IMG/VR virus record: IMGVR_UViG_3300038443_000660
Span: 130,082 to 194,081 of that record
DNA from: a virus
Taxonomy: Duplodnaviria; Heunggongvirae; Uroviricota; Caudoviricetes
Reading direction: 5' to 3' (one strand)
Length of the DNA stretch: 64,000 nucleotides
Below, in pieces: positions 1,251-63,552 of this stretch. The position numbers and the translations under genes are program-made. The notes below the pieces were generated by a model, which was given only the letters and a program-made list of their open reading frames with translations, was not told where the DNA came from and did no database searches. Every line of letters begins with the position of its first letter. The stretch's first letter is position 1.

Positions 1251-1748
1251 TTATGGAACTAAAAAGTGTTGTTGTTCTTCTGGTTTTGGTGCATTTTCTG
1301 GTGTAGGTGGCTTCGGCCAAAGCTGCATTTCATTGTTGTCGCCACGACCATGCATTCCTGAAATTTCCAAATCGACGCCATTGGCATCTGGATTATTTCC
1401 GTCCATACCGTCTTGAAGTTTTTGGGCTGATTCAGTTGAATATGGGATATAGCACAATTTTGGACCAGAGTCGGGAGTGTCAAGAAACAAATGAATTTTA
1501 TCGTTCTGAATAGCCTGAAACCCTATAACCGTGTATTTTCCGGGTTTGAAATACATTTCAACTGAACATGGAATGGACCAACCAACAGAAAATAATAATA
1601 TAGCTGCCGATACGAGAGAACCAATGAAAAACGCTACAACTGATAACAGCCGTGGTTTATATTGTCCCGTCCGTGCCCATATAGCAAAATGCGCCACCAA
1701 TCCTAAAATAAATGTGAGAGCAAGCCATGCGGAAACGAGAAATATCAT
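1251..1748 (-). CDS. membrane protein, two N-terminal TM helices and Pro-rich C-terminus
   Basis: Hydrophobic segments at about residues 2-24 and 34-57; tail WPKPPTPENAPKPEE; ATGA overlap with the upstream gene. Confidence 0.75.
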   Translation of the reverse strand: MIFLVSAWLALTFILGLVAHFAIWARTGQYKPRLLSVVAFFIGSLVSAAILLFSVGWSIPCSVEMYFKPGKYTVIGFQAIQNDKIHLFLDTPDSGPKLCYIPYSTESAQKLQDGMDGNNPDANGVDLEISGMHGRGDNNEMQLWPKPPTPENAPKPEEQQHFLVP

Positions 1749-2308
1749 TTTTTCGAATTTCTTAGCGGTGTAAATACGTGGTTTATAGAATTCGGTACTA
1801 TATGTTGTTTGTCATCAATTTTAAATCTAACTACTGTTATTTCCTGATTTGGCTTACGAAGCGTAACCTTGTCTGAAAATATTCTAAGAGCGGGTTTTCC
1901 CGAACCTGCATTCAGTAAAACTTCGACATTGACAACCATTGGAAACGTATTGATGCGATACGAGTGAATATTTACTACATATTCACCGGGCGGTAATCCA
2001 CGAGAAAATGCATTCTCATAATTAAAGCCGATTGTGTCATATAAAGCTAAGCCAGTATCGTCACGTAACAGATTCCAAACTTCACCATCTTTGTTTGAAT
2101 AACCAACGGGAATCTTCTCGCCCGGTCCCATTAGCCATAAGTCAACGTCTGTATTTCCATCCGGCCATGTGATAGTGACAACTAAATTCCCCGGCGCATT
2201 GATTTGCCCGTTTTCCTTGGAATTCGGATTCCAGTTGGCCAACATGACCAAAGCCATCATTCCAAGCAACATATTCAAGAGGACATCACGAGAAATGATG
2301 TTATTCAT
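1745..2308 (-). CDS. single-pass membrane protein with DUF2135/YfaP-like beta domain (ExbD/MotB-like topology)
   Basis: N-terminal RDVLLNMLLGMMALVMLA (Asp at TM start); LVVTITW..DVDLW..PG and GEYVVNIHSY. Confidence 0.7.
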   Translation of the reverse strand: MNNIISRDVLLNMLLGMMALVMLANWNPNSKENGQINAPGNLVVTITWPDGNTDVDLWLMGPGEKIPVGYSNKDGEVWNLLRDDTGLALYDTIGFNYENAFSRGLPPGEYVVNIHSYRINTFPMVVNVEVLLNAGSGKPALRIFSDKVTLRKPNQEITVVRFKIDDKQHIVPNSINHVFTPLRNSKK

Positions 2309-2849
2309 TCAATAGCTGCCTATCAGGCTTAGATTCGGCGTGTGCCTTTTTAGTGTCCTCGATAAAGGTCGTGGTAGCTGTTTCCAGCATGGAAAAATTA
2401 ATCCATGTCCATAAGCCAGTAATCGCACCTGCCAGTGTTGAACCAAAGGCTACACCCATGCCCATTAGGAGTTGGGGAGCAATTTGTGCCGGGTCCGTGC
2501 CCGCCATGTCTAAGGCGATAAAAAATCCTAGAGCATTGCCGATAAGGCCGAGAGTCGCCAAATATTCTGCTATTTTATAGATATGGAGATTTTTAGCTTC
2601 AATTTTCTTGGCACCAGTAACATCAAGTAACTCACCCCTGTCAAGATTATTTTTAGCCCTAGATACTTTCCAAATTCTGATTGCAGAAGAAACCAACCCT
2701 ATCACAAAAAGCAGAACGATGATTTCGCAAATTTTAGAAACGTCACGCTCAAAAACTTTATGGACATAGCCCATCGACCATGCCCATATAAAAATTGCAA
2801 AACCTAAGCCATTTGTAATAAGATATCGAAAAAGTAAAAGATTTTTCAA
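2301..2849 (-). CDS. MotA/TolQ/ExbB proton-channel family protein
   Basis: LGLIGNALGFFIAL and GMGVAFGSTLAGAITG helices; start moved to TTG at 2849 because the longer ORF runs through the tRNA. Confidence 0.78.
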   Translation of the reverse strand: MKNLLLFRYLITNGLGFAIFIWAWSMGYVHKVFERDVSKICEIIVLLFVIGLVSSAIRIWKVSRAKNNLDRGELLDVTGAKKIEAKNLHIYKIAEYLATLGLIGNALGFFIALDMAGTDPAQIAPQLLMGMGVAFGSTLAGAITGLWTWINFSMLETATTTFIEDTKKAHAESKPDRQLLNE

Positions 2850-2872: not shown

Positions 2873-2950
2873 TGGTTGCGGGTGGAAGATTTGAACTTCC
2901 GTGATCGGCGTATGAAACCGTGCTGGAACCAGACTCCAGTCCAACCCGCA
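2873..2950 (-). tRNA. tRNA-Met(CAT), initiator-like
   Basis: TGCGGGT/ACCCGCA acceptor stem + ACCA, TTCATAC anticodon loop, GGAAG-TTCAAAT-CTTCC T-arm. Confidence 0.9.
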
Positions 2951-2963
2951 ATATTCGTACTCT

Positions 2964-2971
2964 TATTTATA
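2964..2971 (-). promoter_or_regulatory. T4-type late promoter (TATAAATA)
   Basis: Exact gp55 consensus 14 nt upstream of the tRNA-Met 5' end. Confidence 0.7.
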
Positions 2972-2976
2972 CAAAT

Positions 2977-3561
2977 TTAGATGAATTCTTTTTGTTTGTC
3001 AAGATATTTCTTTCTTTCTTTTTCTTTTAATACAGCTTCGATATATTCTTTAGCGTATGAACATTCTGACAAATGGCTACAAATCAGTGGTGATTCCATA
3101 GCAAAAAGATTAGCATCATATTCATGCGGCAAAATCGCATATTCAGTTGGTTCGGGCCACTTTGCATTTCCATTCAAAACGAGTTCACCGTTATAATATA
3201 ATCTGTTATCAGATGTATGTATCAATCGCCCCCTCATGAATTGATATGCATGGCGTATTTCATGAAGAAAGGTGAACATCAGGTCGTATTGGGTTAAATC
3301 CCAAAGCAACGGAGATAATGCGATAAATTTCCAGTCATCTTTAAAATAACAACAAGAATGATGTAGGTTATAAAATATATCAAAAGATGATACCAAATGA
3401 AATTCCGACAAATCAATATTAGGTACGGATTTAAGAACTTTGGCCAGCAATCCTGTCATTCTGGTATCGGTAAAATGACACGATTTCATCCGATATTTGA
3501 CATAGGAAAAGTTTGGGTCATATGGAGTATCAATAAAATTAAGCGACTTGAAAACTTTCAT
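2977..3561 (-). CDS. HExxH zinc-metallopeptidase-like protein
   Basis: FLHEIRHAYQ..GRL ... LPHEYDAN. Confidence 0.7.
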   Translation of the reverse strand: MKVFKSLNFIDTPYDPNFSYVKYRMKSCHFTDTRMTGLLAKVLKSVPNIDLSEFHLVSSFDIFYNLHHSCCYFKDDWKFIALSPLLWDLTQYDLMFTFLHEIRHAYQFMRGRLIHTSDNRLYYNGELVLNGNAKWPEPTEYAILPHEYDANLFAMESPLICSHLSECSYAKEYIEAVLKEKERKKYLDKQKEFI

Positions 3562-4105
3562 GTGATATATCCATATTTCTAATTAATTTCAAATATCGGA
3601 TTGTCATAAAGACTACTTTAGAATAACAAGAAATTCCCGAAATTCTATCACGAATCAATGGATGATTAAGTGTATACTTATTTGCATCTAATTCTTGTGG
3701 CAGTGTTATATAATCATCCCAAGTGATTACATTTTTAATACGTTTACCATCCCAATATGCAATATCGTCTATATAATCATAAGTTAATCGGCCAGTTTGA
3801 TTTTGTTCTATATGACGAAGTTCATGAATAAAAGAATATAAAACATCAACTTCTGTTCCTATATTTAATGCCAAAGCATCAACGATATCTAATCTATGTT
3901 CACTGTGAACACAAGCAGAACCGAGTTCTTTAGAAACAGAAAATAAATTCCAACGAGATAAGTCAAGGTTCGGGAACGAATCAATAGCCTGTACGGCCAA
4001 TTGCATCGTCTTAGGACAAAATGTTTCGTAACTGTTGAATCTTGATAATCCGAAAGTTTTTATAGGCTTTAGATTGCGAAGTTTTTCAGAAAAATTAATA
4101 TTCAT
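3539..4105 (-). CDS. HExxH zinc-metallopeptidase-like protein (tandem paralog)
   Basis: FIHELRHIEQ..GRL ... LPQELDAN. Confidence 0.7.
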   Translation of the reverse strand: MNINFSEKLRNLKPIKTFGLSRFNSYETFCPKTMQLAVQAIDSFPNLDLSRWNLFSVSKELGSACVHSEHRLDIVDALALNIGTEVDVLYSFIHELRHIEQNQTGRLTYDYIDDIAYWDGKRIKNVITWDDYITLPQELDANKYTLNHPLIRDRISGISCYSKVVFMTIRYLKLIRNMDISHESFQVA

Positions 4106-4505
4106 ATTCTTCCTTCCTCAAACCGGGGAAATGTTGAATCGCTTCGCTAAAAGAAATCTTAAGGCCATTCGCCATAATCCAACCGGTAAATTCAGAATAT
4201 GACGGGTCATCATAAGATACATCAGGTACAATGCCTGCATAGCACCGATATTTCTTAGCGTAGTCTAGTACCAGAACCGCCAAAATGACATATTCACCAA
4301 TTGGGCTTGGATATCGACGGGCAGAATGATTGACATACTGCATAGATTTTTCCTTTGCAATTTCTTTAAGCTTTTCTCTCACTTGACCAATTGTCCAATC
4401 ATCCGGCGAATTGAATATGACATGCATCGCTTCGATAGGTATTTTTTCGCCAAACAACGTTTCCAATTCAATTTGTGTTAATCTACCGGTCACATGTTTC
4501 TCCAC
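4095..4505 (-). CDS. hypothetical protein
   Basis: 136-aa ORF, GTG start, coupled. Confidence 0.55.
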   Translation of the reverse strand: MEKHVTGRLTQIELETLFGEKIPIEAMHVIFNSPDDWTIGQVREKLKEIAKEKSMQYVNHSARRYPSPIGEYVILAVLVLDYAKKYRCYAGIVPDVSYDDPSYSEFTGWIMANGLKISFSEAIQHFPGLRKEEYEY

Positions 4506-5066
4506 CTAGAAGCTGTAATTTTTTGTAAGTTTCCGACACTTCACTTGCCAGTTGGCATTCAAACCATCTTTGTAACAAAATTTCAATCTCGATTCCGGGT
4601 CTTTAAAAACTAACCCTTCGTCAATTTCTTCGGTCAAAGAATCGAAAACTTTTCTAAAATTCGAGTAGATATTCTCAACTTTGATGATATTTTTACCATC
4701 TGGCAAATGCTTGATGATATTCAGTCGGTCATTCAACGTTTCGCCTACTTGTTCAATACCCCTGTAAACCAAAACGTCAAACAAGTAAATGGTGTTTTTT
4801 ATCGTTGTCGATTTGTTGTGGAGAAGTTCGCCAACAAAAACGGAATCAGGAAATTGTTTAAAATAATCGATGATATGTTGGGGAGCAACCCACGCCTTGT
4901 GTATTTCTTTATGGCGATTCCAAAATTCGATATCGCCACATTCATCAATCGAAATTACCGTGCATGTGCCATTCTTTTTCAGTTGAGCGATGTAACCGGA
5001 TTTTTCATAAAACCCAATCATATCTGGTGGAATCGCCTTTTCCGGTCGTGGTGGCCAAAGAAACAT
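4506..5066 (-). CDS. minimal ATP-dependent ligase-fold nucleotidyltransferase
   Basis: Motifs I KKNG, III FVGEL, IIIa YLFDV, IV EGLVFK, V QVKCRK; no OB domain. Confidence 0.75.
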   Translation of the reverse strand: MFLWPPRPEKAIPPDMIGFYEKSGYIAQLKKNGTCTVISIDECGDIEFWNRHKEIHKAWVAPQHIIDYFKQFPDSVFVGELLHNKSTTIKNTIYLFDVLVYRGIEQVGETLNDRLNIIKHLPDGKNIIKVENIYSNFRKVFDSLTEEIDEGLVFKDPESRLKFCYKDGLNANWQVKCRKLTKNYSF

Positions 5067-18158: not shown

Positions 18159-19085
18159 TTATTGCATTAATTCAAAATCATCGGGAACATACTCACCGGG
18201 AACAGTCTTTCTATTTTGAATATATCCAATAAAATTACCATGTAACTTTGGATTGTCCCAAGTTTTACGACCGAATTGTACCGAACCATGCTTGATAGAT
18301 TTTGTATCAGGCGTAGCCTGATGTTCGATAGGACTAGCGTGTACCAATTCAGAATTAATCAGATAATTATAACGCTTTATTTCAGCTTCTATACTTCCGT
18401 TACCGTCAAATGGTGCGTATGATACTCTGGCACAGCGGGCAGCGGAAATTTTCTTTAGGACTGCGATTACTCTCTCGTCCGTAGGATAGATGGACTGTTT
18501 TGCAAGCCAATCGTCCGCAATATCCCAATCTTCATCTCTAACATACGGAAGGTGCCACTCACCCGGCATTAATAAAGTCGGTTTCGAAGCTTTATGGGCT
18601 TCGAGCATTTTTTCTGCTAGAATATGAATCTCGATTTGTGCATCTTCATGGTTGCGGAGAGCATAAAAATTCTTCCAATTCGTAGCAGTAGCTAAAACAT
18701 CAATGTATCCAAACCATTCTAGTGGTCGATTGACCCATTGTTTATGGATACCCAAATCGCTCAATTTTTTGGTTGAAGTTTTGGTGTATTCAACCAAATC
18801 CAACCATATTCTTTCGGCTTCTAGTTGATCTTCAAGAGATAGAGGGGAAGCGGGTTGCATCCCCTTCTGATTATAGTAAAATTGAGGAATATAAGGTAAT
18901 TCATTTACCAACGTAACAAAAGGAACCGCTCTAGACGAACGGCCATTCTTGGATACTTTCCGATGGGTCATAAATTCAGAATGAATGGCCCGCCAGTATC
19001 GAAGATGAAACGTGGTAATACGAATTCCTTCTGATGAAATAGAATCTGCGATAATTTTAGCTGTAATAGAATCTTGGTTATGCAA
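18159..19085 (-). CDS. thyX: FAD-dependent thymidylate synthase
   Basis: ITAKIIADS, EFMTHR..S.N..SSRA.P, HASP.EHQA; TTG start overlapping the primase stop. Confidence 0.88.
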   Translation of the reverse strand: MHNQDSITAKIIADSISSEGIRITTFHLRYWRAIHSEFMTHRKVSKNGRSSRAVPFVTLVNELPYIPQFYYNQKGMQPASPLSLEDQLEAERIWLDLVEYTKTSTKKLSDLGIHKQWVNRPLEWFGYIDVLATATNWKNFYALRNHEDAQIEIHILAEKMLEAHKASKPTLLMPGEWHLPYVRDEDWDIADDWLAKQSIYPTDERVIAVLKKISAARCARVSYAPFDGNGSIEAEIKRYNYLINSELVHASPIEHQATPDTKSIKHGSVQFGRKTWDNPKLHGNFIGYIQNRKTVPGEYVPDDFELMQ

Positions 19086-20148
19086 TCGGTACTCTGTCTT
19101 TATAATCTGATTTGTCGTATAATTTAATTTTCTTCCATCTGGCAAACTTCATTTTAGCTGTTAGACCAGTGAAAGTATTTTCATCAATAATAGTTTTAAT
19201 TTTGGATGGTGATATACCATTCATAATACCGGCATTCACATCTTTACCGGGGAACCATTCAGGCAGCAAACACACTTGTTGGTTATCGTTGATAGCCCAT
19301 TCAATTTTCTTTACAATTTCCCTGTTTCTAGGTTGCTTGTCGAAAATTACTGTCACATTATCTTTCGGTAAGAATTTCCATATCTTTTGGAAATCAGAAC
19401 CATCAACGCCAATCGAATTTTCCATAAACATGGAATCTATTGGTCCCTCAAATGCGTATACTCGTTTTGAGATATTCAAACGTTCCTGTCCGAAAATGAG
19501 TGGAACATCTTCATTTCTTCTCAACAAAATATAACGCATATGTTTGGGGTTAATGGCACGAGCCGTAATCCCAATCAAGTCATTATTTCTAGCATGTATA
19601 GGTATAACTATTCTGGGGTCGAAGCCGAATCTGGTGTCTTCATACCTACCCGGAAACAGTGTTGCCACGTCATTTAAGTCTTTACTATAGTATAATCTGT
19701 CAAACCATGCAAATGGAATCTGTCTGTTTTTCAAATAAAGGTAGGCGGTGTGATTTTCTGGTAACGTCGAAATTTTTTGCGCTACATGTTCGATAGATTT
19801 CACTTGCAAAGAGAAATATGCGTCAGAATCAGTGACAGAAGTATCTATCTTTTTTTCTTGTTCATATTTACCACCATTCTCACGAAATCGTTCAAAAATA
19901 TACTCTTTAAACAAAGATGGATTGCATAGTTCTAAATATTTATGAAACGTGTACGAAGCGCCACAATTGTGGCACATATACCGAAAGTTATTACCCTTCT
20001 TGAATATGTATCCTCTAGCTTTTTTCTTGTTCTTCTTGGAATCGCCACAGAGATTACAAGAAAAATTGTACACCGAACCGGTTACACGTTTGAAGTTCCG
20101 TAGATTCGCAGATTGTAAAGCGATGTATTTTTGATCGAGCCATAACAT
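19078..20148 (-). CDS. gp61: DNA primase
   Basis: C..CGDS....KARGY zinc finger, CHNC, FEGPIDSMF TOPRIM, GKDVN. Confidence 0.93.
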   Translation of the reverse strand: MLWLDQKYIALQSANLRNFKRVTGSVYNFSCNLCGDSKKNKKKARGYIFKKGNNFRYMCHNCGASYTFHKYLELCNPSLFKEYIFERFRENGGKYEQEKKIDTSVTDSDAYFSLQVKSIEHVAQKISTLPENHTAYLYLKNRQIPFAWFDRLYYSKDLNDVATLFPGRYEDTRFGFDPRIVIPIHARNNDLIGITARAINPKHMRYILLRRNEDVPLIFGQERLNISKRVYAFEGPIDSMFMENSIGVDGSDFQKIWKFLPKDNVTVIFDKQPRNREIVKKIEWAINDNQQVCLLPEWFPGKDVNAGIMNGISPSKIKTIIDENTFTGLTAKMKFARWKKIKLYDKSDYKDRVPIA

Positions 20149-20180
20149 TTCTATTGGAATAACAGAAACTGGTTGTTATG

Positions 20181-20333
20181 TCAATCTAAATCTACTTGTT
20201 GCGTATAGTTAACATCTTGGACAGAAATTATAATGAATTTATTTTGCTTCACGTACTGATACCCGAAAAACAACGTTATACCAATAAAAATCCCAATAAC
20301 AGCAACAGATAGATTCTTCATATGCTTTAACAT
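20181..20333 (-). CDS. 50-aa single-pass membrane protein not in the ORF track
   Basis: MLKHMKNLSVAVIGIFIGITLFFGYQY... Confidence 0.55.
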   Translation of the reverse strand: MLKHMKNLSVAVIGIFIGITLFFGYQYVKQNKFIIISVQDVNYTQQVDLD

Positions 20334-20345
20334 GATTGCACACTA

Positions 20346-20558
20346 TTATTTTGAAATAGATTGAAGGAAAACCTTGATTGAATCCCAGAAGGCGAAGAAT
20401 GTCATGAATCCTCCAATAGCAACCAAAATGACGTTGCGCATATACTTCCCTAACCATCCAAGTGCTTCCTGACGCTTTATCATTTCTCGCATGATTTCAT
20501 AATCCTTGCGAGGAAGTTTGACATCGATTAGTTCGTCTTCCTTGTTTAGTTCGTCCAT
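20346..20558 (-). CDS. small C-terminally anchored membrane protein
   Basis: VILVAIGGFMTFFAFW; lies in the lysis cluster. Confidence 0.6.
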   Translation of the reverse strand: MDELNKEDELIDVKLPRKDYEIMREMIKRQEALGWLGKYMRNVILVAIGGFMTFFAFWDSIKVFLQSISK

Positions 20559-20571
20559 AAAATTTGCTGCC

Positions 20572-20913
20572 TTATTTTTTATTGTTATTGTTAGCGGTTT
20601 TCATTTGTTCATCATATTTTTCCATCAGACGAATTGCATCGCCAAGATATCCGTGTCTTTTTGCACAAATTATCAAATTTTTTCTATCAACTGACCAATA
20701 TCGTTCAACTTCCTCTTGTGTTAATGCTCTTTCTGGAAGCAAAACTGGAAGGTTACAGGCTTCTAGTAGTTTTGAATCGAAATATGGTTGAACGTGTGTC
20801 GGTGGAAGCAACTTAACTTCTCTCGAATTATGGGTACAAGCCGCCAACGTACTGGCCATCACGAGGATAATAAATGATAATAATATAGGACGTATAATTT
20901 TATAGATATTCAT
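20572..20913 (-). CDS. o-spanin-like lipoprotein
   Basis: Lipobox LAAC; Pro-rich; W..DR..LIIC. Confidence 0.75.
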   Translation of the reverse strand: MNIYKIIRPILLSFIILVMASTLAACTHNSREVKLLPPTHVQPYFDSKLLEACNLPVLLPERALTQEEVERYWSVDRKNLIICAKRHGYLGDAIRLMEKYDEQMKTANNNNKK

Positions 20914-20917
20914 TGCA

Positions 20918-21277
20918 TTATCTCAATTTGTTAAGACGTTTAGTAGAAGATTCAGAAATACCGTTCGTCTTAGCATTCGGGTCGGATGCAGCTTCGTTTT
21001 GGTTTTCTAGCATCAATTGTTCTATGGTATTTTCCTTGACGCTTAATTCCTGCGACAATTTGTCCTGAATTTCTTTCGCTTGTCTATTTTTTTCAAGTAA
21101 ATCATCAATTTGTTTGTTGTATTCTTTCTCTAGTTGAAGTTCTATCTGACTAATCTTCAACTCGTATTTGGTTTTCGTAGTGCTTACGCCCATGCTATAA
21201 GCTTTAATTAGGGCTAAACCTATGATTCCTACAACTACAACTGGCATAAGCCATGACGGTAATGAAAATCCAAACAT
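20918..21277 (-). CDS. i-spanin-like protein
   Basis: N-terminal TM followed by a coiled coil, directly upstream of the lipoprotein. Confidence 0.75.
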   Translation of the reverse strand: MFGFSLPSWLMPVVVVGIIGLALIKAYSMGVSTTKTKYELKISQIELQLEKEYNKQIDDLLEKNRQAKEIQDKLSQELSVKENTIEQLMLENQNEAASDPNAKTNGISESSTKRLNKLR

Positions 21278-21318
21278 TATAATTACAAATCCTATATTGT
21301 TCTATAGTATTTATGGAA

Positions 21319-21648
21319 TCACTCGTTTCTAGAATCATCGGTTGGAATTTGACTATCATCAACCGGACCGAATTGATTCGATTGTTGATTGCTGACATTT
21401 ATGGCGTTCATATAATGCTTGTCGTCAAAAACGGCCCCAAAGATGTATGTTCCGAGTAATGAAACAGCAGCAGCAATTAAGGCAATAGAAATTTGCTGAA
21501 AAAGAACTGTATCAGAGTTAGAAAATATAATATATGAAAGCCAGCAAAAAATAGAGATAAGGCATAGATCAAGCCTCAATCTACGTTTCTTCCATTCAGA
21601 CGGAGTAATGGGAAATGTGTTCTTTACTGACTTTCGATACTTATTCAT
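21319..21648 (-). CDS. holin-like two-TM protein
   Basis: Basic N-terminus KKRR, two TM helices, Y.FGA.FDD. Confidence 0.65.
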   Translation of the reverse strand: MNKYRKSVKNTFPITPSEWKKRRLRLDLCLISIFCWLSYIIFSNSDTVLFQQISIALIAAAVSLLGTYIFGAVFDDKHYMNAINVSNQQSNQFGPVDDSQIPTDDSRNE

Positions 21649-21650
21649 TT

Positions 21651-22049
21651 TTATCTTACAGGCAATACCGGGTCGGGAGAAAAGAATTTCTTCTTTCTCA
21701 TGATTGTTTTTGACCGGAGTTCAATAGCTTTCTTGACCGGATTCCACTTGAATACGACAGGAACATTAATATCTGTCCCCATGTCTTTCAAAACAGCTTC
21801 TGATTCAGGCTTCATGAATTTTATTTTATTACCAAACTTCTGATATACGAGTTTGAACAATCTCGATAATTCAGCTAGTGTAATATGTGGCTTATTACGA
21901 AAGTCATTAACTCTTTCCATAAAGTGTTTGGTAAAGCTTAAATCTACACCAAGCGTCTCAAAAAGCTTGTCTAGATACTTTTCGAGTTGCTTCATGGTTT
22001 CCCACGGAATAGAGGTTTCTTGTTCGATTAAATATTGTTTAAAACTCAT
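21651..22049 (-). CDS. putative internal head protein
   Basis: Starts MSFKQYLIE (capsid-targeting-like); start moved to 22049. Confidence 0.65.
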   Translation of the reverse strand: MSFKQYLIEQETSIPWETMKQLEKYLDKLFETLGVDLSFTKHFMERVNDFRNKPHITLAELSRLFKLVYQKFGNKIKFMKPESEAVLKDMGTDINVPVVFKWNPVKKAIELRSKTIMRKKKFFSPDPVLPVR

Positions 22050-22050
22050 T

Positions 22051-22365
22051 TTAGTACGCCACATGTGATTTGCCATCGGCATCTTTGTAATGTACACCGG
22101 GCTTTGGTTTAACTTTTTGATACGTATCCCAGAAATCTTGGCCCATACGGGTTTTGTTTCCACGACGAGTCCACTCTTTTTCGAGTTCCTTGTGTCGCTT
22201 CTGTTGTTCTGGTGTTCTTTCACTAGACCTAATATTATTGTGTTTGATATATTCTCTTTTTAGAATATCCTTATGCATATCAGAAGGATTTGCTGTTGGA
22301 GACGTAGACCAGTTTTTAGCATTAGGATTCACAAATCCTTCAACTAATAATCTTTTCATTTTCAT
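22051..22365 (-). CDS. hypothetical protein, possibly virion-internal
   Basis: MKMKRLLVE N-terminus; coupled. Confidence 0.55.
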   Translation of the reverse strand: MKMKRLLVEGFVNPNAKNWSTSPTANPSDMHKDILKREYIKHNNIRSSERTPEQQKRHKELEKEWTRRGNKTRMGQDFWDTYQKVKPKPGVHYKDADGKSHVAY

Positions 22366-22838
22366 TGTTTCGGTTCCTTCCTTCTCACTAGTTTCTTTTT
22401 CTTTTTATTATAAAAAGGTGGATTATTATCTAAACCAGCCATTCCCGATGCGTCACCCACTGACATGGTAGGAGCATCTTCATTCAAAATATCTTGCGCT
22501 TCATCAAAATATGACTGAATAGTCTCCCATAATTTTTGTTCATCAGAAAAATCGATATCATCATTTTCTCGCAACAGCATGACGGCAGCGGCATACGATG
22601 CCAATCTTGATTTACCACCGGGAACCTTACCCAACAGTTTTTTAAGATTCATAACCAGAACATCGTACATTCGTAATGAACGCTTCTGTACCGGAGTCCT
22701 TTTCTTTGGTGGAATCAATATGTTTCCTTCACCATCAATAACACCAGTCTGATACGCCTTCCATTTGTTGAAAGGCGTCACCAATCTTTTGATGAATGAA
22801 TATAACAAAACCGTATCGAATATTGATAAACTTGCCAT
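22362..22838 (-). CDS. conserved hypothetical protein of T4-like phages
   Basis: F.K.LVTPF.KW.AY..GVID..G, LKKLL.KVPGG...L.SYAAA..L.RE. Confidence 0.75.
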   Translation of the reverse strand: MASLSIFDTVLLYSFIKRLVTPFNKWKAYQTGVIDGEGNILIPPKKRTPVQKRSLRMYDVLVMNLKKLLGKVPGGKSRLASYAAAVMLLRENDDIDFSDEQKLWETIQSYFDEAQDILNEDAPTMSVGDASGMAGLDNNPPFYNKKKKKLVRRKEPKQ

Positions 22839-22839
22839 T

Positions 22840-23280
22840 TTACTTAAATCTATCTTCGTCCATCTTCTTTAGAGCCGCTTTAACACCTTCATCCATAGGC
22901 ATATTAACAGTTTGGATTACATACAACTTATCCAATATTACTTCAATTTCTCTCATATACCCTAAGTAAATCAGAAAAGGAATCAAACAATCATGATATT
23001 CAGGAAGTTTAAACAATAACATCTTTGTGCAAGCGTTATGTTCAAACACATTATAAAGAACAACCAAGTGATTGATTATCAATCTTTCTCTAAGCACTTT
23101 CTTTTTCTTGTAGGCATAAAGTAGCTTTTTTAAATACTTTATGCGATTCAAATCTTCAAGAAATTCTTCTGGTGATAAACAATTTGGATTGTCATAATAC
23201 TTTGTAGCAAACATATAAAAATTTACTTCATTCAATGTCATGCGGTTATCTGATTTACCTTTCTTCTCCATTTTATTCAT
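22840..23280 (-). CDS. conserved hypothetical protein of T4-like phages
   Basis: NF..FA.KYYDNP.C...EEF.EDL.R.KY. Confidence 0.75.
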   Translation of the reverse strand: MNKMEKKGKSDNRMTLNEVNFYMFATKYYDNPNCLSPEEFLEDLNRIKYLKKLLYAYKKKKVLRERLIINHLVVLYNVFEHNACTKMLLFKLPEYHDCLIPFLIYLGYMREIEVILDKLYVIQTVNMPMDEGVKAALKKMDEDRFK

Positions 23281-24026
23281 TTATTTCTAACGTTCCCGAT
23301 AGCGTCAGAATAAGTCAACAACATTTTGAGTAATTCATTCAAAGGCAAATCAATCACGAGCGTTGACATTTTAATTTTAGGGTCTAACAGTACAGCGAAT
23401 AGCCATCTATGATGTCCATCAACTATAAAATTATCTTTTGATGAAATCATGAACGAATTTCCAACCATCTTTTGAAATTCATCTTTTTGAAATCTCAAAC
23501 CAAACGACAAAGCCTTGTCCAAATAAATTTGTTGTTGAATAGGCTTCAACGAACCGGCTGGTTTGGTATCATGATAACATTTCACCATATCATCTGAAAA
23601 TTTACCGTCTCTCCAACCATTCGTTAACCATTTGGTAGCTAATTCCTTTGGCAAACCTTCGGGAAACGGGTTTGTGGGGTCTGTGTTTTTGGCGAATGGA
23701 GCCTTCATATCGATACTGCCACGTTCCAATCGTCTTTGAAGCATAAAAGCATCTGAACGACGAATAACCGGCATGTCTTTACGTTGTGTTTTACCTAAAG
23801 TTGCCAGTTGTTGGGCGTATCTGTAATTTTTCACAAAATCGGGTAACAGTTTCTTCGGTGATACTGTGTGGTTGTTTTTGTATACGTCATTAACTAATTT
23901 GACAGCGGTTTGTATCGGGGTCTTGACAATCTCGTATTGTCCAGCCTCGGCACCACCACCACCGCCTTGCCTTTCAAGAATGTATTCCTGATTTTCATTC
24001 TCAAGAAGAAACCGCTTAAAACCCAC
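23277..24026 (-). CDS. ParB-like N-terminal domain protein, putative internal head protein
   Basis: FIVDGHHRW; N-terminus MGFKRFLLE. Confidence 0.7.
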   Translation of the reverse strand: MGFKRFLLENENQEYILERQGGGGGAEAGQYEIVKTPIQTAVKLVNDVYKNNHTVSPKKLLPDFVKNYRYAQQLATLGKTQRKDMPVIRRSDAFMLQRRLERGSIDMKAPFAKNTDPTNPFPEGLPKELATKWLTNGWRDGKFSDDMVKCYHDTKPAGSLKPIQQQIYLDKALSFGLRFQKDEFQKMVGNSFMISSKDNFIVDGHHRWLFAVLLDPKIKMSTLVIDLPLNELLKMLLTYSDAIGNVRNK

Positions 24027-24044
24027 TTGTACGGTCCTTCCTAA

Positions 24045-24443
24045 TTAAAACAATTCTAGGCTTACACGCTTGATTACATTATTGGCGGTCTTGATATACA
24101 AATAACTATCATCATAAAATATTTTTCCCGAACTAATCCCGTCTCCTGTAGAATTGGACGGGGTAAGCTTATCACGGATGATTAGACCATCGGATTGAAC
24201 ATCAAGATTAATAATGTATGCATTTTCACTTGTAACATTTTCTGATACAACGTTACCGGTCGTGGCTGTACCATTCACCTTTAATTGCTGAACAACCGTA
24301 TTACCGGGAAGGTTTTTTAACAAATCAGCAATAGTTATTTGCTTACCGGTAGGAGTTCCGACAGTATCTACAATAATATAGAGAACGTCATTTGCAGATG
24401 CTTGTGTTGCGTGTTCTAATTCACTGACTTTACGACTAGGCAA
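24045..24443 (-). CDS. putative virion or tail-fibre-related protein
   Basis: KVSEL..A...A.D..YI N-terminus and a G.I..D..YLYI C-terminal motif. Confidence 0.55.
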   Translation of the reverse strand: MPSRKVSELEHATQASANDVLYIIVDTVGTPTGKQITIADLLKNLPGNTVVQQLKVNGTATTGNVVSENVTSENAYIINLDVQSDGLIIRDKLTPSNSTGDGISSGKIFYDDSYLYIKTANNVIKRVSLELF

Positions 24444-24444
24444 T

Positions 24445-25359
24445 TTATTTTCCTCTATTCAATAAACGTTGTGCCAGTGATAAGCCCTTTTCACGCTTCT
24501 TAATGGTTTTAGATGCACTATCAAGTTCTTTCTTGGCATTAGACTTTCCATTATCTGTCTGCGCAATATAATGATTGAAATCAGCAATACCTTTATCAAC
24601 ATGTACATTTATAAGACTGTTTCTCGATTTATTTTGGTAATTTTCAATAGTCTTTTGAGAAATTTCGTTAACTTCCTGAATTTCTTCATGCAACTTAGAA
24701 AGAAATCTCGTTGGACCTTTATAGGTCTTTCCGTTAGTAGTCTTTACGTGGACGGAATCACCTTCGAATTTTGTAATGTTTCCTGTAAAGCCTGCGCCAC
24801 CTTTTGCACCAAAACCAAGATGAACACGGTCCCCAATCTTGTGTTCCTTATAGTTTCTCTTACTTGTGTTCGTCAAAACTTCGGAAATAGCCTTGACATT
24901 CGTATCAATGGTTTCAGACATCGACTTACGATTCGCATCAATCTTATTTGATAAGTTTTTTTCAACCTTACTTAACGATTCAAGAATATCAACACGTTTA
25001 CTATTATTTAACATAGCATTAGATTTTTCGGCATTTCTAATTGCTTCGGCGTTAATAAACTTGGTGTTAAATTCTTGCAATTTATTTTCTACAATTGCTT
25101 TCTTTTTGTGCTTATTTAAACCGTTGCCGCCTTCATTGATAATCTTCTGTTCCCAATCCGGGACTTTGACATTCATAGATTCAGCCATTTTCGATACATC
25201 AATATTCGTATCGATAGAATGTTCAGTCTCGAATTTCTCTTGTGCTTCAATCATGTCAATTGAAGGAACTTCAACGCTTTCAACCATAGGGACGGGCTTT
25301 TTATCTAAAAGCCCATTCTTAATGTCGTTAACGAGTTTGTCTTTCTTTCTATAAATCAT
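24445..25359 (-). CDS. putative head core/internal protein with SH3/KOW-like insert
   Basis: Many hydrophobic-x-Glu motifs; KIGDRVH...G.G.ITK.EGD.VHV. Confidence 0.55.
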   Translation of the reverse strand: MIYRKKDKLVNDIKNGLLDKKPVPMVESVEVPSIDMIEAQEKFETEHSIDTNIDVSKMAESMNVKVPDWEQKIINEGGNGLNKHKKKAIVENKLQEFNTKFINAEAIRNAEKSNAMLNNSKRVDILESLSKVEKNLSNKIDANRKSMSETIDTNVKAISEVLTNTSKRNYKEHKIGDRVHLGFGAKGGAGFTGNITKFEGDSVHVKTTNGKTYKGPTRFLSKLHEEIQEVNEISQKTIENYQNKSRNSLINVHVDKGIADFNHYIAQTDNGKSNAKKELDSASKTIKKREKGLSLAQRLLNRGK

Positions 25360-62166: not shown

Positions 62167-63552
62167 TTACATAAGGTTCTTGATTACAAAACCACGGTAG
62201 TACATGTTCTTCTTAGAAGAAGCAATCGCACCATCAGCCGCTGTAGTAGCGAATGGGTGAGCGACCATGCCGTACCTAGTCTTAAATCCAATCTTTGGTT
62301 GGAATGAGTCCTGACCAACGGCACGATACATTTGCAGCGGAACGTATGGGCAGTAGAAGATACCAGCATCGAATGGTGAAGTACCCTTATAACCAACTAC
62401 GGCAAGGTGATTACCGGCAGATGAATTTGCATAAGGATCGATATAAACCTTGTACTGGCCGAACAGAGTACCAGCAAAAGTGTTACCAGTGTCGTCAACT
62501 TCAAGTGTTTCTCTTTCCATAGCAGACTTGTAGTCAAGGTAGCCAGCCATACGGAAGGCAGATGCTACGTCTGATGAACAGAGAACGAAGTTACCCTTAC
62601 CACGACGAGTAGCCTTGGCAATTTGGTTAGCTTCACGTTCAATCTGGAACAGAAGACCCTTAAACTTTTCAACCATCCAGCGACCGTTTGAGTCAACGTC
62701 AAGGTCGAATGAACCAGCAGCAGCGGTATTCTCTTGTGCGCCGATAGTAGCGGTCTTATAGATTGAACGAATAACTTCACGGTTGATTTCAGCAAGAATT
62801 TCACCAGACAGAATGTTAGACAGTTCTGTTTCAGCATCCAGACCATGAACGTTCTTCAAGTCCTGTGCCAATTCGTGTGAATATTCAGCCTTCAAAGCAC
62901 GAGATACAGCTTCTACAGCTACTTTCTCGATGCTGAATGACATTTCGTTGAAAGCGTTACCGGGAGCATCACCAAGTGCTTCGGCAGCGTTACGTGTCAT
63001 ACCCTTTGCATATGTATAGGTAGTGTTAGCACCAGTAATGAGCGTTGAAGGGTCAGAACCGGCCTGTGCGCCACCAACAGCAGCCAATGATGTAGCGTTA
63101 GCAGTACCATTAGCAGCCTGTGAAGATGAAGACCAATGAGTAAGAGCCTCATTGTAGAAAGCTTCTGTACCATCCTGCTTACCATAACGTGAACGGAGAG
63201 CAAATACCAAGCCAGTAGGCATTGACATAGGCTGAACACCGCAAAGGTCATAAGCAATAAGGTTAGGCATTGAACGGCGGATCAAGGAAATCAATACAGG
63301 ATCGTATGTATCGATAGAGCCATCACCAGCAGTTGAGGATGAATTACCCATAGAGTTAGTAGGGGCAGCTTCAAGCAAGTAAGTCAGAGACTGTGTACGG
63401 TCACGAGAAATGGTTTCCATGTTTGACTTAAGCTGATTTTCCAGAAGCACAGCAGTTGTAGTTCTGCGATGAGCATCACGAATCTTTGGAAAATCTTCAT
63501 GGTCAAGGATTGGTTCCCATTTTTCCATTAATGTATTGATATCATATTCCAT
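62167..63552 (-). CDS. gp23: major capsid protein
   Basis: DPVLISLIRRSMPNLIAYD.CGVQPM..PTGL.FA, SRALKAEYS.ELAQDLK.VHGLDAE, FYCPYVPLQM. Confidence 0.97.
   Translation of the reverse strand: MEYDINTLMEKWEPILDHEDFPKIRDAHRRTTTAVLLENQLKSNMETISRDRTQSLTYLLEAAPTNSMGNSSSTAGDGSIDTYDPVLISLIRRSMPNLIAYDLCGVQPMSMPTGLVFALRSRYGKQDGTEAFYNEALTHWSSSSQAANGTANATSLAAVGGAQAGSDPSTLITGANTTYTYAKGMTRNAAEALGDAPGNAFNEMSFSIEKVAVEAVSRALKAEYSHELAQDLKNVHGLDAETELSNILSGEILAEINREVIRSIYKTATIGAQENTAAAGSFDLDVDSNGRWMVEKFKGLLFQIEREANQIAKATRRGKGNFVLCSSDVASAFRMAGYLDYKSAMERETLEVDDTGNTFAGTLFGQYKVYIDPYANSSAGNHLAVVGYKGTSPFDAGIFYCPYVPLQMYRAVGQDSFQPKIGFKTRYGMVAHPFATTAADGAIASSKKNMYYRGFVIKNLM

Follow-up and report, generated by a model that had tools for sequence, protein, structure and literature searches.

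A three-gene membrane cassette of a T4-like virus, with a MotA/TolQ/ExbB-type subunit and an aspartate-bearing partner: a candidate ion-driven envelope motor

The window described here is a stretch of 64,000 nucleotides corresponding to bases 130082-194081 of the 242,456-bp record IMGVR_UViG_3300038443_000660, an uncultured virus with direct terminal repeats. The virus is a T4-like myovirus. The window carries a gp23-type major capsid gene (62188-63315, minus strand) whose product is 66-68% identical to the capsid proteins of T4-like cyanophages. Three genes near the beginning of the window, called here A, B and C, encode small membrane proteins and are the subject of this paper (Table 1). An earlier, sequence-only reading of the region had described them as three overlapping genes, and all three minus-strand open reading frames are indeed present. 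A and B overlap by 8 nucleotides (ATGAATAA) and B and C by 4 nucleotides (ATGA). Only 12 nucleotides separate C from the next gene, and the trio is embedded in a long co-directional gene array. The unusual start codon of A is matched by its aligned homologs, which start at the equivalent residue. The motifs quoted in the sequence-only reading were all found: LGLIGNALGF and VAFGSTLAGA in A, SRDVLL in B and WPKPPTPENAPKP in C. Conservation rules out that the three reading frames are spurious.

Table 1. Features of the trio region; positions are those of the window
Feature	Position	Strand	Description
gene A	2301..2849	-	182 amino acids, TTG start; MotA/TolQ/ExbB superfamily member with four membrane helices, ring or channel subunit
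gene B	1745..2308	-	187 amino acids, single-pass; membrane helix with Asp8 and DUF2135/TerD-like β-sandwich with invariant acidic cluster; candidate axle subunit
gene C	1251..1748	-	165 amino acids, two-helix membrane hairpin, small periplasmic β/α domain and conserved Pro-rich C-terminal tail
tRNA-Met(CAU)-like gene	2876..2951	-	directly upstream of A; atypical
TATAAATA motif	2964..2971	-	'late promoter' of the sequence-only reading; function unsupported
sigma-70-like match TTGACA-N17-TAAATT, 10/12	2974..3002	-	precedes both the tRNA and the trio; consensus match only

The three genes travel together. Relatives of B are encoded in at least 589 stretches of a species-representative genome collection, and neighborhoods were counted for the best 80 of these. 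A is directly upstream of B in 78 of the 80 loci and C is directly downstream, also in 78. These loci belong to Azospirillum, Geminicoccaceae, Rhodospirillales and sponge-associated gammaproteobacteria. No further conserved neighbor stands beside the trio, and no other gene family occurs in more than 19 of the 80 bacterial loci. The 67 IMG/VR contigs that encode B include phages of 196-360 kb and proviruses, and A is found in 61 and C in 60 of them. Using tblastn, all three proteins were found, in the same order, in the Rhizobium and Sinorhizobium phages 16-3 (p038, p040 and p042), AP-16-3, RHph_X2_25 and RHph_TM3_3_14B. A nucleotide search of cultured phages with the trio region gave no match. 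The triad proposed earlier thus holds together as a set in other genomes, and finding A, B and C together in more than 130 independent loci goes far beyond what chance would give. They make up a self-contained cassette, which is chromosomal in many alpha- and gammaproteobacteria and is not specific to phages. In two of the rhizobiophages, homing-endonuclease genes (HNH, Seg-like) are situated between the trio genes, at 3412-4843 of the RHph_X2_25 locus (L002) and at 3289-4047 of the RHph_TM3_3_14B locus (L004), and the trio genes themselves are all intact.

The family is large and uniform. An exhaustive profile search with B gave 526 clusters (at 50% identity) at E ≤ 1e-30 and 1,538 clusters at E ≤ 1e-10. 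The 150 best-scoring clusters all consist of stand-alone proteins of 152-260 amino acids, and there are no fusions among these 150. Several genomes of the Azospirillum order (G088-G097) also contain open reading frames of about 800-1,190 amino acids with a weakly B-like β-sandwich (E 1e-4 to 4e-6), which is probably a DUF2135-type domain inside large proteins. In the Azospirillum order, a strong B match is present in 35 of 118 genomes, often in the form of two paralogous trios that occupy conserved positions some 24 kb from each other. This pattern has the look of vertical inheritance, not of a mobile island. In a quick tree of B, which is unrooted and has a bacterial sample biased toward the query, the window sequence falls into an all-viral clade of 41 rows with 99% support in the Shimodaira-Hasegawa-like approximate likelihood ratio test (SH-aLRT), and the bacterial rows form tight groups. 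A recent transfer of the trio from a host to the phage was rejected on the position of the window B in this clade, with the same reservations about rooting and sampling.

A is a member of the MotA/TolQ/ExbB superfamily, as the sequence-only reading had proposed, and the profile, hhalign and Atlas structure comparisons and the conservation of the channel helices agree on this. The protein itself scores 19.2 bits (E 1e-3) against the Pfam MotA_ExbB family (PF01618), which has a curated cut-off of 22.9. Precomputed PF01618 matches are present in four homologs with 43-63% identity to A (P0038, P0039, P0041 and P0042) and in a bacterial ortholog (locus L007). A profile built from 19 members of the family matches the solved structures of MotA (8gqy, E 1e-5) and of a ZorA-like chain (8vvn, E 4e-4), as well as those of ZorA and PomA. 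All these matches fall on the last two helices. The hhalign comparison with Escherichia coli TolQ gave an E-value of 0.0018 over 171 columns, with both signature motifs in register. In the Atlas, the nearest structure to the A model is an AglR cluster, with a template modeling (TM) score of 0.75, and every member of this cluster carries PF01618. Searches of PADLOC and NCBIfam gave weak matches to ZorA and MotA, those in PADLOC covering residues 43-148 only. PHROGs had no match for A.

The channel helices of A carry the motifs LGLIG[T/N]xxGF and GMxVAxx(S/T)TLxGA, which are aligned with the corresponding helices of TolQ and MotA. Across 132 members, conservation of G101, G104, G108 and T138 is 98-100%. 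The sequence-only reading had remarked that the usual Thr following LGLIG is replaced by Asn. The replacement is real and is specific to a phage clade: Thr is found in all 78 bacterial members, whereas the viral members have Thr in 31 cases, Asn in 22, including the window, and Met in one. The charge distribution over the four hydrophobic helices implies that both termini of A would be cytoplasmic, as in MotA. Judged by its sequences, the A family is essentially devoid of a cytoplasmic domain because the loop between helices 2 and 3 has only about 33 residues in the window protein and is almost absent in the group of Rhizobium phage 16-3, where A is about 140 residues long.

B is the Asp-bearing partner of A. 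Its one membrane helix is N-terminal and bears a near-invariant Asp at the end facing the cytoplasm, as claimed earlier: Asp8 is kept in 133 of 138 family members (96%) and is invariant in a curated alignment of 22 rows. Read at the sequence level, its context, R-D-V-L-L (S-R-D-V-L-L in full), resembles the L-D-V-L-L of E. coli TolR. Between the helix and a β-sandwich lies a linker of some 15 residues, and the AlphaFold2 model of the protein has a predicted local distance difference test (pLDDT) score of 88.5. With VIA-align, the sandwich was superimposed onto the TerD structures 2qz7 and 2kxt with Z-scores of 10.0 and 9.0, respectively, over 133-136 residues, the next, unrelated row having a Z-score of 5.9. 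Foldseek found many DUF2135 proteins in AFDB (E 4e-12 to 1e-6), the best of which has the same helix-plus-domain layout, and the Atlas search with B gave leads that agree with DUF2135. The Pfam DUF2135 hidden Markov model (HMM; PF09906) did not match B at E ≤ 1. The DUF2135-like domain of the sequence-only reading is therefore visible in structure comparisons but not in the Pfam search. Neither did B match any entry of Pfam, PHROG, NCBIfam or PADLOC. The B profile gave one sub-significant match to PDB sequences, the C-terminal domain of Tk-subtilisin, with the common signature W..D.DLW.

The sandwich contains a cluster of acidic residues, D54, D56, D83, D84, E98 and E156, all of which are 100% conserved. 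Solved relatives with the TerD/DUF2135/PPC-type fold bind calcium. Because an invariant Asp/Glu cluster occurs in such a fold class, it is likely to form a metal- or ligand-binding site, and by analogy the β-sandwich probably binds calcium. B had also been called ExbD/MotB-like, a description that suits its membrane helix with the Asp but not its periplasmic domain, which has the DUF2135/TerD-like fold instead. Homology of B to ExbD, TolR or MotB was rejected on this fold and on the hhalign comparison with E. coli TolR, which found nothing (probability 1%).

C was described earlier as a protein with two transmembrane helices and a Pro-rich tail, and both the model and the sequence agree with this. 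The AlphaFold2 model (pLDDT 77) contains two membrane helices, a sheet of three to four strands with a helix, and a disordered tail. The loop between the membrane helices is strongly positive, which implies, by the positive-inside rule, that both termini would be non-cytoplasmic and the C-terminal part of the protein periplasmic. The phage and bacterial proteins are clearly related, as an HMM of bacterial C proteins matches the window C over its full length with E 3e-12. The conserved positions P60, I85, P96, A108 and L111 lie in the periplasmic part. P96 and K155 are 99-100% conserved, K155 being present in 100% and P147 in 91% of the sequences. The Pro-rich tail is short, about 13-20 residues, with the motif P-x-F-Y-A-L-P-Q-P-x-L-P-x-K-P in bacteria and W-P-K-P-P-T-P-E-N-A-P-K-P in the window.

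C had no match in Pfam, PHROGs, NCBIfam or PADLOC. A Foldseek search of the PDB gave nothing below E 0.07, with weak TOBE/Mop/OB-like rows, and VIA-align matched only the helical hairpin. In the Atlas, C is similar to uncharacterized viral and bacterial clusters and to one viral cluster that carries a lysozyme. The earlier label 'TonB-like' could not be kept. Homology of C to TonB or TolA was rejected because it has two membrane helices, no TonB_C match in Pfam and no conserved SHLS-type His in the helices across 25-130 aligned sequences. Longer fused forms of C, of at least 315 residues, were not found, which is weak evidence. C resembles TolA and TonB only in its position and its Pro-rich segment.

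The tRNA-like gene upstream of A was missed by ARAGORN, and its Rfam score, 21.9 bits, is below the gathering score of 29. There are two extra bases between its acceptor and D stems. Its minimum-energy fold, however, is a cloverleaf with a CAU anticodon (z-score -2.7). Orthologous tRNA genes are found upstream of A in a 256-kb relative (L008; an ARAGORN tRNA-Met with 64.7 bits) and in a further copy (L146), and the changes in the T stem are compensatory. The tRNA-Met that the sequence-only reading had placed before the operon is real, albeit atypical. Another tRNA gene, at 63-134 on the minus strand, has an Rfam score of 43.6 bits, above the gathering score, although ARAGORN lists no tRNA in the window. 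The TATAAATA motif, which had been taken for a late promoter, is present, but the window contains 5 copies compared to 6.2 expected, and the copy next to the tRNA is not conserved in the relatives L008 and L146. With neither statistical nor comparative support, this promoter was rejected. A scan of the region for promoters and terminators gave site counts no higher than those in shuffled sequence.

Upstream of the tRNA are two adjacent paralogous genes for DUF6782-like proteins of about 190 residues with an HExxH motif (2977-3561 and 3539-4105, minus strand), one of which has a weak match to DUF6782, a putative metallopeptidase family. The trio of the 256-kb relative is likewise preceded by a DUF6782-like gene. 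Genes of nucleotide metabolism are located downstream. The genes flanking the trio (4506-5066, 546-1025 and 331-549, all on the minus strand) include those of a nucleoside 2-deoxyribosyltransferase and a DUF4031 protein. The first of them, 4506-5066, encodes a protein of 186 residues that resembles RNA and DNA ligases at a sub-threshold level. The flanks of the trio in the window are typical of a nucleotide-metabolism region and not of a lysis region.

Ion-driven motors with 5:2 stoichiometry power flagella, gliding, outer-membrane uptake, division of the cell envelope and one phage-defense system. The interpretation of the trio that we favor, with modest confidence, is that it is a minimal motor of this type, in which A is the ring, B the axle and C a periplasmic partner acting on the envelope. 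A, B and C would form one membrane machine, installed by the phage in the inner membrane of the host. Family membership suggests that five copies of A would surround the membrane helices of two copies of B, as in MotAB, TolQR and ExbBD. Ions might then move between Asp8 of B and the polar residues Asn105 and Thr138 in the last two helices of A, and the ion flow would turn the A ring around B. Because A has almost no cytoplasmic domain, the work would be delivered in the membrane or in the periplasm. The β-sandwich of B would be positioned just above the ring. C, anchored by its hairpin, would display its small β domain and the invariant Pro/Lys tail in the periplasm, most likely in the role of TolA or TonB, coupling the motor to a target in the envelope.

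Because alpha- and gammaproteobacteria keep this cassette as a stable module of their chromosomes, the phage copy is best interpreted as the viral version of a host system that energizes the envelope, and it would be used during infection. Envelope maintenance, remodeling or exclusion are candidate uses. The sequence-only reading had left a choice between a motor of the phage's own and a poison for the motors of the host. Since the trio is chromosomal in many bacteria and not specific to phages, the first part of this proposal, an own copy of a cellular envelope machine, is favored, whereas a decoy that poisons host motors or Zorya is disfavored.

Several observations weigh against the motor interpretation. 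The score of A is under the Pfam gathering cut-off, and the change from Thr to Asn at residue 105, found in the phage clade of the window, could alter or abolish ion conduction. No homology of the periplasmic domain of B to ExbD, TolR or MotB is detectable beyond the helix in Pfam, NCBIfam or the hhalign comparison with TolR, and with so short a linker it is hard to see how B would anchor to peptidoglycan. A TonB or TolA domain was not found in C by Pfam or fold searches, in which the periplasmic domain was searched only within the whole model. The analogy to Tol and Ton is one of architecture. No lineage has a gene for an envelope target beside the trio. No support for assembly or stoichiometry came from the prediction of a complex of four A chains with two copies of residues 1-45 of B, which had a score of 0.01 and is evidence neither way.

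The genomic context supplies clues that point to the envelope, none of them conserved across lineages, and they are to be treated as leads only. Both Azospirillum trios (G005:C1:921500-958000, L156-L158) are near genes for cell-wall hydrolases: one is beside Amidase_3, BON-domain and PhyR genes, and the other is beside Peptidase_M23, hemerythrin and Opp transporter genes. Phage 16-3 (L162/L003, record positions 19039-24512) carries the trio on the late strand, about 1.5 kb past a probable lysis cassette; the immX region, too, precedes the trio in this lineage. This cassette comprises the GH19-like p029 and the genes p033 and p034, the latter nested inside the former as in embedded spanin pairs. 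A trypsin-like protease, p036, precedes the trio of 16-3. A gene for such a peptidase is directly upstream of A in 21 of the 67 viral loci, all in the 16-3 lineage, and overlaps A in RHph_X2_25. Many contigs similar to 16-3 have GH24 lysozyme genes 2-6 kb upstream on the same strand. Furthermore, C bears a resemblance, over 131 residues and with a TM score of 0.57, to the Phage_lysozyme-bearing viral cluster of the Atlas, which can serve as a lead only.

The findings in phage 16-3 and its relatives and the resemblance in the Atlas speak for a lysis-associated device. The trio and, in many siphophages, the periplasmic protease encoded upstream of it would sense or use the proton-motive force and time or assist the breakdown of the envelope, for instance by restraining a hydrolase or the protease until the holin collapses the potential. 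We nevertheless regard this as unlikely. In the window and in its T4-like relatives the trio is found among tRNA and nucleotide-metabolism genes, and the chromosomal trios of bacteria have no lysis context. The link to the protease is limited to one phage lineage, where it may reflect nothing but shared synteny, and the resemblance to the lysozyme fusion is weak and comes from comparing one predicted structure with another.

The absence from A of the torque-delivering cytoplasmic domain of flagellar stators, the acidic cluster of B in a calcium-binding fold class and the lack of a mechanical target encoded nearby would also be compatible with a complex that does not rotate. Such a complex would be an ion channel with a gate, or an assembly that senses calcium or a ligand, and it would alter the membrane potential of the host or signal the state of the envelope without any mechanical output. 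This explanation is rather improbable. The Asp and Thr of the ion path are conserved as they are in active motors, and the conserved extended tail of C suggests that it reaches for a partner. Moreover, the structurally characterized complexes of the MotA/TolQ/ExbB family are all 5:2 motors according to a 2022 review (PMC9389320, Front Microbiol).

Superinfection exclusion or Zorya-like anti-phage defense, in which the motor would sense the perturbation of the envelope by an incoming phage and block it, or in which the phage copy would interfere with the Zorya, Tol or Ton motors of the host, is quite unlikely: the weak matches of A to ZorA models, the presence of the trio in temperate phages and proviruses and in variable bacterial neighborhoods, and its location in 16-3, within a few kb of the immX immunity locus, speak for it, but the ZorA matches are limited to the shared channel helices, A has no ZorA tail and B no ZorB-type domain, ZorC, ZorD and ZorE are not encoded nearby, the two Azospirillum copies are in conserved synteny, unlike a mobile defense island, and the dedicated, co-conserved B and C fit an autonomous machine rather than a decoy subunit.

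If the trio is indeed an envelope motor as outlined above, it might, quite tentatively, join Mot/Pom, Tol/Ton, Gld/Por and Zor as a further, unrecognized class of 5:2 envelope motors. Of the known classes it would be the smallest, with an A subunit of 140-180 residues that lacks a cytoplasmic domain, a DUF2135/TerD-like axle that binds calcium and a dedicated two-helix transducer, and many phages might use it for mechanical work on the host envelope that depends on the proton-motive force, such as gating lysis or blocking the entry of rival phages. The catalog of 5:2 motors would gain a widespread member with a noncanonical axle, a third subunit of its own and hardly any cytoplasmic part, and this member would provide a very small model for the conversion of ion flow into periplasmic work. 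The fact that many phages carry the trio, T4-like jumbo phages, temperate rhizobiophages and proviruses among them, implies that it has a role in infection. Tractable carriers are Azospirillum brasilense, with its two chromosomal copies, and phage 16-3 in combination with Sinorhizobium meliloti. No description of the trio was found in the literature searched, in line with the statement of the sequence-only reading that no functional description of such a phage module was known. The 5:2 motors and Tol/Ton-like force transducers are covered, without this trio, in three papers (PMC9389320, PMC12505986 and PMC12204202).

The components of the trio can be compared with several known systems. Residues 40-185 of B have the same fold as DUF2135 (PF09906), TerD and PPC-type domains, and the W..D.DLW signature is common to B and the C-terminal domain of Tk-subtilisin. 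Unlike these domains, the domain in B has no sequence-level Pfam match, and it has an Asp-bearing membrane helix as its tether and a MotA-like gene as its neighbor, a combination that was not found described in the papers searched. The Zorya ZorAB complex resembles the trio in that the channel helices of A match ZorA models, if weakly, and in that both are non-flagellar modules of the 5:2 type (predicted in the case of the trio) on mobile elements. However, A, with its 182 residues, lacks the long tail of ZorA, there is no ZorB-type domain, and ZorC, ZorD and ZorE are missing. In addition, the trio occupies a conserved chromosomal position in Azospirillum.

The resemblance to MotAB/PomAB and AglRQS is closer in the membrane part. 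A has four helices, as in these systems, and its partner is a single-pass protein with an Asp. MotA is the best match of A among the sequences of solved structures, and the AglR cluster is the nearest one among predicted structures. The differences are outside the channel. A has no torque-generating cytoplasmic domain, neither an OmpA-like peptidoglycan-binding domain nor a plug helix was detected in B, there are no flagellar or gliding genes near the trio, and a third subunit, C, is obligatory.

TolQ-TolR-TolA and ExbB-ExbD-TonB differ from the trio in the details of all three components. The A subunit of the trio has four helices, a MotA-like topology, and almost no cytoplasmic domain. B has a DUF2135/TerD-like β-sandwich in place of the ExbD/TolR fold. 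C is a two-helix hairpin that lacks the SHLS-type His helix and has about 110 periplasmic residues, in which no TonB_C or TolA_C domain was found. Nor is the trio linked to TolB, Pal or a TonB-dependent receptor. What it has in common with Tol and Ton is the overall plan, in which adjacent, coupled genes encode three inner-membrane proteins. One is a channel subunit from the MotA/TolQ/ExbB superfamily. The second crosses the membrane once and has its Asp where the helix meets the cytoplasm (D-V-L-L, as in TolR), and the third is anchored in the membrane and has a periplasmic segment rich in Pro. As in Tol and Ton, the output would be expected in the periplasm and not in the cytoplasm.

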